Of a stretch of DNA of 5,099 bases, positions 411 through 5,099 are shown in pieces. The notes under the pieces were generated by a model that was given only the letters and a program-made list of their open reading frames with translations, did no database searches and was not told the DNA's origin. Numbering within the stretch: the first letter of the stretch is position 1; each line of letters begins with the position of its first letter. A program made the translations under genes and the position numbers. The stretch comes from a virus: IMG/VR virus record IMGVR_UViG_3300045988_008077. One strand, written 5' to 3'.

Positions 411-2150
411 TTAGAAATGGTCAACAAGGCCAGGAGTACCAAACATAGGCATAGGTCGAACAGTAGTGTACTTGAATCCTATATCAATCAAAAATTGAGG
501 CTCGCTGGGAACAGCAATAATACGGCCTATAGGAATATCTTCCTGAATAAATTCAGGACTCAACTTAGGAGCAGTTTCAAAATACTGAGACAAATGCCAC
601 ACATCAAGATTGCCTTTGATGTTAGACCTAAATTTTCCACAAATCACAGAAGGTTTATACCGATACTCGGCATAACGTTCCTGATAGCCAAATACAGAAT
701 TATCCTGTTCGGTATCACCAGTAGCATAAATTTCCTTAAGAAGAACAGCCTGCTCGCCTAAATGAGCAAAAGTAGGCCAGTACCAATCATAAACAGTAGA
801 CCTAGTCCACATACGGTTAATACCTTGCTGATAAGTCAAATCAGCACGAGCGCAACAGAAGCCAAAAACATAACCATGCTCAACGAAAGATTTGGTAAAA
901 CCATGGAACTTAGCACCTGTAACGCCGTAAGCGGAAAGATTGCCTTGCGGTGTCGTATCGTTGGTACTAGAAGTCTGAGCAATAGGATTAATGTTCATCA
1001 TCTTAGTAAACGAACCTAAAAATTCAGGACGCTGCAGCCTGGCATCAGGAGAAACAACGCCAAAGAAAGAGCGTAAGACTTCTGTGTACCGACTACCGCC
1101 ACGAGCAAGACGTTCATAGAACTTCTGCATCTGGAAAGCAGTACGAAGACTGTTGATAGTAAAGATAGAAGATGCATCAAGATTAACGTAAGATTCACTT
1201 CCAAGCAAAGCATTGCCAGGAGTGGCAGTCATAGTAATAGAATCAGAAGAATTGCCTGCAAAACCACCAACATTCGACCAGTCAGAACCAGAACCTCGAT
1301 TAAAGGTTATAGAGCCACTACCAGAAGCTTTACGAGTACCACCAGAGCTAGAAGCACCGCCACCATAAGCAGATACAGCCGCAAGCTGATTAGACGTTGA
1401 CGAAAGGAAGAAGTTAGGCAAAGTACCTTGATTTACTATAGGAGCTGTACCAGCTAAACCTATAGACACACCGGGACCTTTCTGGGTCCAAGGAAGGGCA
1501 GAAGTAAAATAATCATGGCGCTTACCACGAGGTGGACAAGGAAGATAGGTTTCAGGAATTCCCTGAAGCCATTCAGGTTGTTCAGAAACACGGGAACCAT
1601 CAAAAACCTCGTTGGTATCACCTTTTTGAATCTTTACGGATTTCTGCAAATTTTCATCTCTGAACCACTCATTCCAGATAAGATAAACGCCACGAAAAGG
1701 AAGAGCATTAATACCAGATATAGTATTAGGAAGACCTGTAGGAAGACCAAAATAGTCCCAAAGGGTACCTACACCATGCAAGGTATCATCTGTCTTACCA
1801 ACCAAAGAAGTAGTAGGGCAAACGTAATCAGTGGAATCGTCAGGGTCCTCCTGTTCAAAGCAAAAGTTTTGCCAATGATTCCATACAAGACGATTAGGAA
1901 CGAAGAAGAAGAACCAGTCAAGGTAAATATTATCCATAATAGGCTTTACAGGAGTGGCAAGGCGAGAAAAATACCTAACCCTTAAACTGGAAGTGTCGCC
2001 AGGCAAGACCTCGTCAATAAACACAGGAATAAGCTTACCTGAATCAAAGGTAGTCTTATAAACGTGTGAGCGGTCGAACTTAGTGCGACGCATATACATA
2101 GCAGGAGCATCTGAAAAGCGATGACCTTTAACACGGATTCTACGTGACAT
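411..2150 (-). CDS. VP1: Major capsid protein VP1 (gokushovirus F-like jelly-roll capsid protein), 579 aa
   Basis: ATG at 2150..2148 with AAAGGAGT SD (complement of about 2158-2165) 6 nt upstream. Stop TAA at 411-413. The N-terminus 'RRTKFDRSHVYKTTFDSGKLIPVFIDEVLPGDT' is the signature gokushovirus VP1 motif (FDRS..KTTFD.G.LIP.F.DEVLPGDT). Its size is typical for the family. Confidence 0.93.
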   Translation of the reverse strand: MSRRIRVKGHRFSDAPAMYMRRTKFDRSHVYKTTFDSGKLIPVFIDEVLPGDTSSLRVRYFSRLATPVKPIMDNIYLDWFFFFVPNRLVWNHWQNFCFEQEDPDDSTDYVCPTTSLVGKTDDTLHGVGTLWDYFGLPTGLPNTISGINALPFRGVYLIWNEWFRDENLQKSVKIQKGDTNEVFDGSRVSEQPEWLQGIPETYLPCPPRGKRHDYFTSALPWTQKGPGVSIGLAGTAPIVNQGTLPNFFLSSTSNQLAAVSAYGGGASSSGGTRKASGSGSITFNRGSGSDWSNVGGFAGNSSDSITMTATPGNALLGSESYVNLDASSIFTINSLRTAFQMQKFYERLARGGSRYTEVLRSFFGVVSPDARLQRPEFLGSFTKMMNINPIAQTSSTNDTTPQGNLSAYGVTGAKFHGFTKSFVEHGYVFGFCCARADLTYQQGINRMWTRSTVYDWYWPTFAHLGEQAVLLKEIYATGDTEQDNSVFGYQERYAEYRYKPSVICGKFRSNIKGNLDVWHLSQYFETAPKLSPEFIQEDIPIGRIIAVPSEPQFLIDIGFKYTTVRPMPMFGTPGLVDHF

Positions 2151-2278: not shown

Positions 2279-2743
2279 TTATTTTTTTTCTTCATTTTCT
2301 CCTAAATTGTTACTTTCATTATTATTTTGTTCTTTTACAATAGAATCTTGTACTACGTCAGGAGTATAAAGACCGTATTCCTGAAGCAAAGTTAAAGTTT
2401 CAGGACGATTCAAACGTTGCACAAATTCCATAGGGTCATGGTTGAATTCCGCACGAAGTTTCGAAGGCAAAGTGTAGAATTCTTCACGAACGCCAGAAAC
2501 AAGGTCAAGAGCAGTTTCGTAATCGCCAGGAAGCGTAGCATCACCGAACTGGAGATACTGGTAAATATCAGTATTACCTAAATCAAGCGTAGAAACGCCT
2601 CTCTGACCGTCGCAATACTTATTGACGATATAATTGATGTCTGTCTCCTCTTTCTCGTCCTGTAGAGTAAGTGAGGGCAAATAGAACACCTTTCCATAAT
2701 GATCATGGGATTCAATATCATCATAGGGAGTCTTAAATTTCAA
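2279..2743 (-). CDS. 154-aa acidic protein, likely the internal scaffolding protein (VP3-like). TTG start.
   Basis: TTG at 2743..2741 is the first start codon after an in-frame TAG and lies 7 nt downstream of a perfect SD, AAAGGAGGTGA (complement of 2747-2757). Stop TAA at 2279-2281. Its size (about 150 aa), acidic C-terminus (ENEEKK) and position immediately upstream of VP1 fit a gokushovirus VP3. The assignment rests on size, composition and synteny only. Confidence 0.5.
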   Translation of the reverse strand: MKFKTPYDDIESHDHYGKVFYLPSLTLQDEKEETDINYIVNKYCDGQRGVSTLDLGNTDIYQYLQFGDATLPGDYETALDLVSGVREEFYTLPSKLRAEFNHDPMEFVQRLNRPETLTLLQEYGLYTPDVVQDSIVKEQNNNESNNLGENEEKK

Positions 2744-2843: not shown

Positions 2844-2872
2844 ATTTTACTCCTTTTCAGAAGATTTTGCAA
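2844..2872 (-). promoter_or_regulatory. Promoter-like TTGCAA-17-TAAAAT on the coding strand, overlapping the stop of the 92-aa ORF
   Basis: Minus strand reads TTGCAA (2872-2867), a 17-nt spacer AATCTTCTGAAAAGGAG, then TAAAAT (2849-2844). It lies immediately upstream of the terminator hairpin, so its function is doubtful. Confidence 0.2.
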
Positions 2873-3125
2873 CATAATCACGAGCTTCGCCTATAAGTTT
2901 TGGCATTACGGTGTTAAGTTCGTCATCGCTAAGGAAATAGCGACCATCCATATCGCCAATATTGCCAAGATAATAGAGAGCAAAATCATCAGGGTATTTC
3001 GAAATAGGAAATTCAGGGTTATTCACGCTCCCTTCAAAACTGCGAAGAGCAATCAAATCATTATGAGCAACATACGGTGGGCTGAAAGATTCAGCTTTCT
3101 TATCATAAACAGAGTAAATTTTCAT
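2847..3125 (-). CDS. 92-aa small protein, possibly the VP5-like DNA-binding / ssDNA-synthesis protein of gokushoviruses
   Basis: Real ATG at 3125..3123 with an AAAGGAA SD about 10 nt upstream. Stop TAA at 2847-2849. Protein MKIYSVYDKKAESFSPPYVAHNDLIALRSF... Its size and its position after Rep match VP5 in gokushovirus gene order. No motif was firmly recognised. Confidence 0.5.
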   Translation of the reverse strand: MKIYSVYDKKAESFSPPYVAHNDLIALRSFEGSVNNPEFPISKYPDDFALYYLGNIGDMDGRYFLSDDELNTVMPKLIGEARDYVAKSSEKE

Positions 3126-3375
3126 CAGACAAAATTTCCTTTCGAGATCGATACAATTTTAAAACACGATTAAACATCAAAGCTTGCTCCTTGCTGAAAA
3201 TATAATACATATCATCAATACGAATCACGGAACAGCCAGAAGTTTTAATCTTATAACAAGCATATTTACTGCCTGAAAAAAAGGGATTAAAAACATAATT
3301 ATTAAAATTACACCAACGTTTTAAAAATTTAAGCTCATCTATATTATCGCCTCCTTCCGTTATAGTATGACACAA
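3103..3375 (-). CDS. Putative 90-codon ORF in an AT-rich segment, in the same frame as Rep and starting immediately after its TAA. Start codon unresolved.
   Basis: It is the only frame of the six that stays open across 3126-3375, even though the segment is about 68% AT and therefore stop-prone. A strong SD GGAAGGAGG (complement of 3350-3358) lies inside it, but the only ATG downstream of that SD is out of frame. The first in-frame start is the TTG at 3375, the codon immediately after the Rep stop. It overlaps the 92-aa ORF by 23 nt. Confidence 0.3.
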   Translation of the reverse strand: MCHTITEGGDNIDELKFLKRWCNFNNYVFNPFFSGSKYACYKIKTSGCSVIRIDDMYYIFSKEQALMFNRVLKLYRSRKEILSDENLLCL

Positions 3376-4287
3376 TTACAATTGTTTGTCAAGCTTTCTT
3401 CCAAGAAATGTTTTATACTTTCCTTCGAGACACCTGCAACGGTCAACAAGACGTTCAAACGTGTTATTTTCGAGATGAAAGAGCATTTTTTGAACACGAT
3501 TTTCTTTAACGCAGTCAATCCATTCAGGATATTTTTCGGAAAACTTCTTATCATAAAAGCGAGGAGGCCTCATCTTCCTGCCATTGATAACAACAAAATC
3601 ATTGGAATAAACATCTTGACCATACTTCTCAAGCCAAGCTGCACCAATGCCAGGCCTACGAGAAGCTACGAGAAATTCAGGGGTTCGACCTTTATAATGT
3701 TCGTTGGAATTAGAACCAGTCTGTTTTTTAACTATGTAGCGCGCGACATAAGCAGCGGCATCAAAGCTAAACTCACCGATAAGATGCATACCGTACTTCC
3801 AGACTTTACCAAAACGAGGACTAGTATAGGTATTATAGCCATCGGCACGGAATGCAAAAATTTTATCAGACAAATCAATGTTATAAAAAATGTAATGATA
3901 ATGGGGACGACCATGTAATTCACCATATTCGCCACAACCGATAAAACGAATTCCAGAACCAAACTCTCTACGAAGATTCTTCAAAAAAGTTTGATGAAAT
4001 TTCACCGACAAAGATTTATCGGCAGGCAAATGATAATTATCAAAAGTACAAGTTAAGAAATAAGCAGATTCAGACACACGAGCCTCATGCACGCATCTAA
4101 CAGCCCATTGACGTGAACGTTCTAGCCTGCAACCAAGACACTGACCGCAGGGAACACGAATAAACCTATTATCAGAAGCGAGATGAGGATTATTAGCCAA
4201 AGAACCATAGAAAGCACGATGCTGTTTACCGTTTTTAGTATACGCTCCAACAACATCAGTCATAAGCATAGGATTAAAGCAAACCAT
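3376..4287 (-). CDS. VP4: Replication initiation protein VP4 (HUH rolling-circle Rep, phiX174 gene A-like), 303 aa
   Basis: ATG at 4287..4285, stop TAA at 3376-3378. RCR motif 1 is FLTCTF. Motif 2 (HUH) is HGRPHYHYIFY. Motif 3 is AAYVARYIVKK with paired catalytic Tyr, compare phiX A 'YVAKYVNKK'. A CGQCLGCR Cys cluster is also present. Confidence 0.93.
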   Translation of the reverse strand: MVCFNPMLMTDVVGAYTKNGKQHRAFYGSLANNPHLASDNRFIRVPCGQCLGCRLERSRQWAVRCVHEARVSESAYFLTCTFDNYHLPADKSLSVKFHQTFLKNLRREFGSGIRFIGCGEYGELHGRPHYHYIFYNIDLSDKIFAFRADGYNTYTSPRFGKVWKYGMHLIGEFSFDAAAYVARYIVKKQTGSNSNEHYKGRTPEFLVASRRPGIGAAWLEKYGQDVYSNDFVVINGRKMRPPRFYDKKFSEKYPEWIDCVKENRVQKMLFHLENNTFERLVDRCRCLEGKYKTFLGRKLDKQL

Positions 4288-4332: not shown

Positions 4333-4438
4333 ATCCTAAATCCGCCTCGCTGTACTCTACGAAGATTTCTACGTCTGGGTCTGGATGTACGGCGGAAGAG
4401 TCGACGAGAACCTCTTCTACTAATCCGACGCCTACGCA

Positions 4439-4678
4439 TTATTTATCTCTCCAAGAACCGAAAAAACGAGAAGAACCTTTAGAAGAATCTTTTTTAGAAG
4501 AAACTGGAGTAAGAACTTCACTAACATCGGCTTGAAAGTCAGAAGCCACCTTCTTGGCAGTAACCAAGTTAGCGCTAGACTTACCTTTTAAAGCTTCAAT
4601 CAAATCTACGACTTCTTGGATAAAGGGAACGACAACAGATACGATAAAAGTAAGAATCATGGTAGTTTTGTTTGACAT
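4439..4678 (-). CDS. Small 79-aa membrane protein with one N-terminal TM helix and a basic, Ser/Lys-rich tail; candidate single-gene lysis protein
   Basis: ATG at 4678..4676 is 5 nt after the VP2 TGA stop, with a GGAAGGTG SD about 6 nt upstream. The ORF track begins at an alternative GTG at 4687. Stop TAA at 4439-4441. Sequence: MSNKTTMILTFIVSVVVPFIQEVVDLIEAL... then a hydrophilic KK/SS tail. It does not overlap the structural genes. Confidence 0.5.
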   Translation of the reverse strand: MSNKTTMILTFIVSVVVPFIQEVVDLIEALKGKSSANLVTAKKVASDFQADVSEVLTPVSSKKDSSKGSSRFFGSWRDK

Positions 4679-4683
4679 AAAAA

Positions 4684-5099
4684 TCACCTTCCAAAATAAC
4701 GTTTTCTCAAGAATCCGATGCCTTTACCAATAGCACCAGCAACACCTTTGCCAATAGCAGGACCCATGACTTTAGCATCAGCTCCAAGGTCACCAAGGGA
4801 CTTATAAAAGTCACGTTCATAGCCTGCAAGCTCCGTTTGAACATTATCAAAAGCGGCCGCAGAATTGGCACGCAAAGCAGAAGCAGTTGCATTCAAAGAA
4901 TTAGCATCATACATCTGACCGAGCTTATGAAGATTATCAATTTCAGCTTTCATGCGGTCAAATTCAAATTGTACACGCTGATCAAAAGTTTTAGTCTTAA
5001 AATCAACATCATTCTGCAAAAGCTTGTTCTGAAGGCCTGCATTAGTAGTATTAGCAGTAGCAAGACCGGCATTAGCAGAAGAAGCTTTAGCATCAGCAA
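4684..5099 (-). CDS. VP2: VP2 C-terminal part, continuous with 1..398 across the circular junction (5045-5099 duplicates 1-55)
   Basis: Open frame ...LQNDVDFKTKTF...GPAIGKGVAGAIGKGIGFLRKRYFGR* with stop TGA at 4684-4686. The 'M' given in the ORF track at 5019 is actually an internal TTG codon. The frame stays open up to the window edge. Confidence 0.8.
   Translation of the reverse strand, partial: ADAKASSANAGLATANTTNAGLQNKLLQNDVDFKTKTFDQRVQFEFDRMKAEIDNLHKLGQMYDANSLNATASALRANSAAAFDNVQTELAGYERDFYKSLGDLGADAKVMGPAIGKGVAGAIGKGIGFLRKRYFGR

Follow-up and report, generated by a model that had tools for sequence, protein, structure and literature searches.

The stretch of viral DNA analysed here, IMG/VR record IMGVR_UViG_3300045988_008077 (5,099 nucleotides (nt) in full; hereafter the window), carries a small open reading frame (ORF) of 79 amino acids (aa) just after the gene for the pilot protein VP2. 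We found that this ORF, which we call ORF79, is a genuine gene by which one clade of gokushoviruses from the mammalian gut is defined, and that its N-terminal 33 codons are under the tightest constraint in the genome. Judged by the predicted structure and hydropathy of this segment, the ORF79 product probably, if marginally, anchors in the host membrane. It is the best stand-alone candidate for the lysis gene of this lineage, and we tentatively propose that it is a single-gene lysis effector, a reading that we regard as possible but short of probable.

The family to which ORF79 belongs is already catalogued, without an assigned function, as PHROG 23638; residues 1-78 of 79 matched positions 1-77 of 79 in that family (E = 1.8e-41). 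Homologous sequence was present in 20 gut gokushovirus genomes on deposit, sampled from humans, pigs, dogs, monkeys and mink, always after VP2 and mostly unannotated or labelled 'hypothetical protein'. The family comprised at least 493 clusters at 90% identity in a large protein database, nearly all of 79-81 aa, and about 250 loci in IMG/VR. Intact homologues of 79-101 aa were found in all 84 loci scanned, and in a tblastn control ORF79 was full-length and free of stops in 84 of 86 related loci. An exhaustive profile search returned 29 matches among 1.84 billion cluster representatives, each either a fragment or a similarly small protein of this type, which indicates that the family is narrow.

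In a neighbour-joining tree of VP1, the carriers of ORF79 were monophyletic (bootstrap 74/100), and their sister was a pig-gut virus without the gene. ORF79 was also absent from eight sampled gokushovirus genomes outside the clade in which the same core genes were present, and in several out-of-clade genomes VP2 is followed directly by VP8 and then by Rep. ORF79 therefore does not belong to the set of genes common across Gokushovirinae (VP1, VP2, VP3, VP4, VP5 and VP8). It is an accessory gene, gained a single time and kept thereafter, outside the core machinery.

Within the clade, selection on ORF79 was strongly uneven. In codon-aligned comparisons of genome pairs, codons 1-33 had a nonsynonymous divergence (pN) of 0.01-0.04 at a synonymous divergence (pS) of 0.62-0.78, corresponding to omega (pN/pS) of ~0.02. 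In the same genome pairs, omega was 0.11-0.20 for VP1, 0.09-0.16 for VP4 and 0.23-0.46 for VP2; beyond codon 33 of ORF79 it rose to ~0.4. Because synonymous sites are saturated, it is the ORF79 protein that is constrained, rather than some element in the DNA or RNA. Identity to KX513872 followed the same order (ORF79, 82%; VP4, 76%; VP1, 74%; VP2, 56%), and the helix was still recognisable in genomes whose VP1 and VP2 were only ~51% and ~35% identical, respectively.

The start and the surroundings of the gene were also well defined (Table 1). A preliminary description of this DNA had placed the 79-aa ORF at 4439-4687. The ORF itself stands, and its upper coordinate is corrected: 4687 is the GTG start of a mechanically called 82-aa ORF, and the 79-aa version begins at the ATG at 4678. 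As that description stated, ORF79 has its own Shine-Dalgarno (SD) sequence (AAGGTGA, 4690-4684) and starts just after VP2, which ends at 4684; relatives have GGAAGGAGATAA or GGAAGGTGA at the same position. It was nearly right that the ORF overlaps nothing, except that one base is common to its TAA and the next ATG, and this overlap with the following gene (offset -1 or -4) was kept in nearly all loci. The next gene is a 36-aa VP8/J-like gene that had been missed. ORF79 therefore lies between VP2 and VP8 and does not directly precede VP4. The expectation that related genomes would carry the ORF at this position was borne out in every related genome examined. The TAATG overlap couples ORF79 translationally to the VP8/J-like gene, and ORF79 shares its gene block with structural genes.

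ORF79 consists of a nearly fixed N-terminal helix, a linker that varies in length and a short C-terminal motif. The N-terminal consensus of the family is MSNKTTxILTFxVSxVxPFIQExVDxIxx(L/F)(K/R). In a 30-sequence alignment, M1, K4, T5, T6, L9, T10, F11, V13, V16, P18, F19, Q21 and D25 were invariant; among 195 family members, K4, L9, F11, P18 and D25 were conserved at 100% and most other N-terminal positions at 96% or more. Conservation extended to every face of the helix. AlphaFold2, given the 30-sequence alignment, predicted one continuous helix over residues 3-32 (predicted local distance difference test (pLDDT), 88-96), followed by a region of low confidence (pLDDT 45-60) in which residues 57-68 were disordered. 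At the C-terminus, R71 and F72 were invariant and S70 was present in at least 90% of the aligned sequences, and the motif was retained in the most divergent members of the family. An example of a tryptic peptide of ORF79 is VASDFQADVAQLVEPVANK.

The predicted helix has the hydropathy of a membrane span, with reservations as to its length. Its core, T6-I20, comprises ~15 residues with a Kyte-Doolittle mean of 2.52 over a 15-residue window; the 19-residue mean was 2.06, above the threshold of 1.6 and below the 2.79 of phiX174 E. The helix also qualified on the Eisenberg scale, so that a hydrophobic helix, as anticipated in the preliminary description, was recovered by structure prediction and by two hydropathy measures. 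On a simple sum of the Hessa biological scale, the 19-residue value was +4.2 for ORF79 and −3.4 for E, and the 15-residue value for ORF79 was −0.22. Within the ~30-residue helix, the hydrophobic core is followed by an acidic amphipathic stretch. The mean charges of the flanks in the family (+1 on the N side, −1.3 in residues 21-35) predict an N-in/C-out orientation. We also considered a cleaved signal peptide and rejected it: the candidate IEA|L site is not conserved, being IDM or ISM in sister clades, which makes a signal-anchor more likely.

Gokushoviruses lack a recognisable lysis gene of the type that inhibits peptidoglycan synthesis (PMC7062461), as the earlier description had noted, and the literature records no lysis gene for the group (PMC7062461, PMC3394797, PMC9239249). 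In the library searched, we found no paper on ORF79 or on a gokushovirus lysis gene. PHROG and Pfam scans of the eight main ORFs of the window found no peptidase, lysin, lysozyme or amidase. As is characteristic of single-gene lysis, ORF79 is short and the compact phage genome around it encodes no recognisable muralytic enzyme; its restriction to one lineage is typical of the accessory genes that serve this purpose. Its conserved SD and stop/start coupling provide an expression context that supports the same reading. Other microviruses have a peptidase instead (PMC3394797), and a peptidase is also encoded by MN379640, a gokushovirus outside the clade. In PQ006263.1 the same VP2-VP4 slot is occupied by an unrelated, strongly hydrophobic ORF of 70-80 aa, annotated 'hypothetical' (3006-3248). 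Small, strongly hydrophobic and unrelated ORFs were also seen in the VP2-VP4 gap of KM589498.1 (2543-2680 and 2820-2942). The ORFs of PQ006263.1 and KM589498.1 could be positional analogues of ORF79.

The proposal that ORF79 is a lysis effector thus draws on the conservation of the helix, its lineage specificity and the lack of any other recognisable lysis gene in the genome. In the mechanism that we envisage, the helix would serve as a single-pass anchor in the host cytoplasmic membrane, N-in/C-out, with the invariant K4 inside and the acidic flank and tail outside. There it would attach to and inhibit a conserved membrane step in the making of the cell envelope, much as E inhibits MraY and LysM inhibits MurJ. 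The C-terminal motif may form a second contact at the outer face of the membrane, and progeny would be released through lysis of growing cells. The helix evolves more slowly than every structural and replication protein of the phage while pS is saturated, and its partner is therefore most likely a slowly evolving component of the host membrane rather than a phage protein that changes fast. A more specific version of this proposal, in which ORF79 is the founding member of a new single-gene lysis family ('protein antibiotics') and its helix binds and blocks a conserved membrane enzyme or flippase of cell-wall synthesis, seems to us unlikely.

The nearest functional precedent is phiX174 E of the Bullavirinae, a single-gene lysis protein that inhibits MraY, requires SlyD and lyses growing cells. 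Like E (91 aa), ORF79 is a small Microviridae protein with a proline in its N-terminal hydrophobic helix (Pro18; Pro21 in E), it is encoded just upstream of a small basic DNA-binding gene (VP8; J in phiX174), and neither genome encodes a muralytic enzyme. The preliminary description went further and gave the ORF 'exactly' the architecture of E, which was an overstatement. E has a transmembrane helix with an essential proline; the helix of ORF79 has an invariant one, but its core is ~15 residues rather than ~19 and did not pass the simple Hessa sum. The net charge of ORF79 is +3 (+2 for residues 21-79; family mean, +1.7), compared with +11 for E. The tail is rich in K and S, as described, but it is acidic as well, and this mixed charge does not amount to the strongly basic, cytoplasmic C-terminal domain of E. 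The predicted orientation is also opposite to that of E, and the C-terminal motif is almost invariant, whereas the C-terminal domain of E has been reported to be replaceable. Finally, ORF79 is a stand-alone gene with a strong SD, and E is overprinted in the scaffolding gene D.

Searches for relatives among known proteins were negative. Alignment of the ORF79 family with hhalign gave a probability of 0.2% against E of J02482 and 0.3% against phiX174 K. A Pfam scan of ORF79 found no family at E ≤ 0.1, Microvir_lysis included, and NCBIfam, PADLOC (only a noise match at 0.027) and a sequence-profile search of the PDB yielded nothing. Foldseek searches of the ORF79 model against the PDB and BFVD were likewise empty, a result that says little because the model is a single helix.

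Two other groups of small phage proteins bear comparison with ORF79. In LysM and similar lysis proteins of single-stranded RNA (ssRNA) phages, the helix itself inhibits a protein of the lipid II pathway, MurJ being the target of LysM, according to two reports (PMC12506998, PMC10229422). Like these proteins, ORF79 is short, lineage-specific, unrelated in sequence to the others and predicted to be a single-helix membrane protein; unlike them, it belongs to a different virus realm and is stand-alone and extremely conserved. Among microviruses, Ebor encodes a 45-aa predicted membrane protein, Gp1, that was not detected in virions by mass spectrometry (PMC11980548). ORF79 resembles Gp1 and phiX174 K, neither of which has been assigned a lysis role, as a small hydrophobic microvirus protein, and the Gp1 gene also lies in the pilot-gene region. 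In contrast to ORF79, K is overprinted, and Ebor has a separate peptidoglycan hydrolase.

Several points weigh against a lysis function. ORF79 has no homology to any known lysis protein by family scans or hhalign. Its hydrophobic core is short and fails the 19-residue Hessa sum, which leaves doubt about insertion across the membrane. With its strong SD and its coupling to structural genes, ORF79 should be made abundantly, whereas E is made at low levels. We know of no E- or LysM-type single-gene lysis protein described for Gram-positive Clostridia hosts, and the host of this phage may be such. The aromatic-basic motif at the C-terminus would suit docking to a phage or host protein equally well. 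Fast evolution is usual for known single-gene lysis proteins, and those of ssRNA phages are usually both overprinted and fast-evolving (PMC7693330); the conservation of ORF79 is unusual for the class. Finally, VP4 contains a hydrophobic +1-frame ORF that stays open in the close clade, and the true lysis gene could be this one.

If the VP4 +1 ORF were the lysis gene of the clade, overprinted as E is in D, ORF79 would have an unrelated function; we think this improbable. The frame was open in all 72 unique VP4 genes of the close clade, compared with 27.5 expected after shuffling of synonymous codons, and synonymous diversity of VP4 was lower over the overlapped codons (0.152 vs. 0.227, p = 4e-4). 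In the sister clade, an ATG start codon stands at the corresponding position (MAVVF...). However, the 72 sequences are closely related and are not independent observations. The lowered synonymous diversity is likewise confounded by relatedness and by the HUH region of Rep, which is conserved and coincides with the dip; the dip also coincides with an overall gradient from the N- to the C-terminal half of VP4. Stops interrupt the frame in all three of the divergent lineages that bear ORF79. Third codon positions are 54-61% T, so long, open, hydrophobic +1 frames are to be expected, and long open +1 runs within the window did not exceed those in synonymous shuffles. Other hydrophobic alternative-frame ORFs were rejected as lysis genes: they were mostly broken in relatives, and only the VP4 +1 ORF was open. 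The view that such ORFs are artefacts of composition, taken in the preliminary description, thus largely holds, except that the VP4 +1 ORF is not safely dismissed; it could represent a gene overprinted in the manner of phiX174 E, or it could result from composition and from the relatedness of the sequences.

The gene block raises a different explanation, that ORF79 is a small protein of the virion or of its assembly, synthesised alongside VP2 and VP8. Such a protein could be a membrane-active helper of the pilot protein in DNA delivery, or an adaptor that docks its SRF(F/L) motif inside the capsid; the C-termini of phiX174 B and J contact the coat protein F. The position of ORF79 between the pilot and DNA-binding genes, its strong SD and its stop/start overlap with VP8 would all fit, and the C-terminal aromatic-basic motif superficially resembles the C-terminus of VP2 (...RYFGR). 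Strong conservation is also typical of structural interfaces. In this case, however, the helix is far more conserved than VP1 and VP2, the partners with which it would have to co-evolve, and the tails of VP2 vary (GRYFGRR, GIGYLLK) while that of ORF79 is fixed, with no co-variation seen. Sister gokushoviruses have VP1, VP2, VP3 and VP8 without ORF79, which places it outside the core assembly pathway. Nor did we find a natural VP2-ORF79 fusion: the one candidate, a match recorded under 'VP2' in three GenBank records, proved to be an ORF79 whose ATG overlaps the end of VP2 by 8 nt and which had been left unannotated. Gp1 of Ebor, the only comparable small membrane protein checked by mass spectrometry, was not in virions. 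We consider a role as a virion or assembly component rather unlikely, though less so than a lysis gene within VP4.

The membrane topology predicted for ORF79 fits yet another role, that of a membrane accessory protein rather than a lysis inhibitor with a specific target. As a holin-like or depolarising peptide, it could form oligomers in the membrane and set off the autolysins of the host. Alternatively, it could modulate infection without causing lysis, for example by affecting burst size, as phiX174 K does, or by excluding superinfection. Class III holins are single-pass and N-in/C-out, the layout predicted here, and conservation on all faces of the helix suits self-oligomerisation as well as target binding. 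phiX174 also encodes a small membrane protein of this sort, K, which is non-lytic and affects burst size. If the host is indeed a member of the Clostridia, collapse of the membrane potential alone could activate its autolysins. Yet no endolysin that could serve as its partner was found by PHROG and Pfam scans of the genome, a pore-former would be expected to have a longer hydrophobic core, and nothing beyond noise linked ORF79 to holin families, phiX174 K or PADLOC models. ORF79 does not qualify as a class III holin, its topology being derived from flank charges only, with neither an endolysin gene nor a holin-family match. The purifying selection is also unusually strong for a dispensable modulator. 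We judge this explanation to be doubtful, on a par with a new family of lysis proteins.

The first 55 nt of the window are repeated exactly at its end (1-55 and 5045-5099), and this terminal redundancy indicates that the contig is a complete genome, circularly permuted and 5,044 nt long. Every gene is on the minus strand; they follow one another in the order VP1, VP2, ORF79, VP8/J-like, VP4, 90-aa ORF, VP5 and VP3, and were assigned by PHROG and Pfam matches; VP2 matched phrog_8693, 'pilot protein for DNA ejection', with E = 1.3e-61. The VP8/J-like protein (MRRRRISRRGSRR...RGGFRI) had an equivalent ending in RGG(I/F)R(L/I) in 8/8 other gokushovirus genomes sampled and a full-length match without stops in 85 of 86 loci. 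It was left unannotated in several GenBank relatives. The unassigned 90-aa ORF begins with TTG, its GC content is 0.29, and it is only ~38% identical to sequence in KX513872 and KX513874; family scans of this ORF gave only matches at noise level. VP3 also appears to start with TTG (2741-2743, minus strand), preceded by a strong AAAGGAGGTGA SD, and this start is supported by an ATG at the equivalent position in a relative (L100, described below).

Table 1. Features of ORF79 and of the genome that carries it (window coordinates).
Feature	Coordinates	Strand	Remarks
ORF79 coding sequence, 79 aa	4439..4678	-	ATG 4678-4676, TAA 4441-4439
Shine-Dalgarno sequence AAGGTGA	4684..4690	-	5 nt before ORF79 ATG; includes VP2 TGA stop (4686-4684)
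N-terminal helix module, codons 1-33 (MSNKTTMILTFIVSVVVPFIQEVVDLIEALKGK)	4580..4678	-	almost invariant
Hydrophobic core, residues 6-20 (TMILTFIVSVVVPFI); putative membrane span with invariant Pro18	4619..4663	-	
Variable linker, residues 34-69; polymorphic length, mixed charge	4472..4579	-	indels up to ~20 residues
C-terminal motif, residues 70-76 (SRFFGSW)	4451..4471	-	family consensus (S/Y/W)SRF(F/L)
TAATG stop/start overlap, ORF79 to Arg-rich gene	4437..4441	-	one base shared
VP2, DNA pilot protein, 252 aa	398 to 1, on from 5044 to 4684 across the circular junction	-	phrog_8693
VP2, 3' part	4684..5044	-	directly upstream of ORF79
VP8/J-like gene, Arg-rich, 36 aa	4439..4329	-	directly downstream of ORF79
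VP4, Rep protein	4287..3376	-	PHROG/Pfam
Hydrophobic +1-frame ORF inside VP4, 76 aa	3962..3732	-	open in close clade
Unassigned 90-aa ORF	3375..3103	-	between VP4 and VP5
VP5	3125..2847	-	PHROG/Pfam
VP3	2743..2279	-	PHROG/Pfam
VP1, capsid protein	2150..411	-	PHROG/Pfam

The nature of the host bears on what ORF79 might target. A scan of one genome for each of 185,579 species found no prophage. The sole match on this route, SFFE01000042.1 (L093), was discarded as evidence of integration: it is a complete circular phage contig binned in a Clostridiales metagenome-assembled genome. We also found a 15.8-kb IMG/VR contig, IMGVR_UViG_3300008383_000153 (L100), in which 4,472 nt of phage DNA are joined to other DNA. 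The phage part is a near-complete genome of the clade, 99.9% identical to the circular genome L103. The adjoining genes are of Clostridia type and encode an extracytoplasmic function (ECF) sigma factor, a toxin-antitoxin pair, a two-component system and an ATP-binding cassette (ABC) ATPase; the histidine kinase is 77-84% identical to proteins of Dorea, Faecalimonas and Peptococcaceae. There is a single abrupt junction, at position 4472 and inside a coding region. No dif site was found at the breakpoint, the nearest dif-like sequence being 36 nt away with 9/28 mismatches, and the junction may represent either integration or an assembly chimera, which cannot be distinguished. Strong SD sites precede nearly all genes of the phage. 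Together, the binning, the L100 contig and the SD sites hint weakly at a host in the Clostridia. A Gram-positive host would be notable for a gokushovirus, and the envelope target would then be that of a Gram-positive cell.

Gokushoviruses are among the most abundant single-stranded DNA (ssDNA) phages in the human gut, and the release of their progeny is an acknowledged gap; ORF79 offers a concrete, testable lysis candidate for one abundant gut clade. Should ORF79 prove to be a virion or accessory protein, it would still be a clade-defining gene that is omitted from many GenBank annotations. Were it the founder of a new single-gene lysis family, ORF79 would be the first of its class identified in Gokushovirinae and, should the weak hints of a Clostridia host also hold, the first to come from any small ssDNA phage that infects Gram-positive gut anaerobes. 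As a lysis protein, ORF79 would expose a new weak point of envelope synthesis, possibly that of Clostridia, and, like E and LysM, would provide a small peptide lead.

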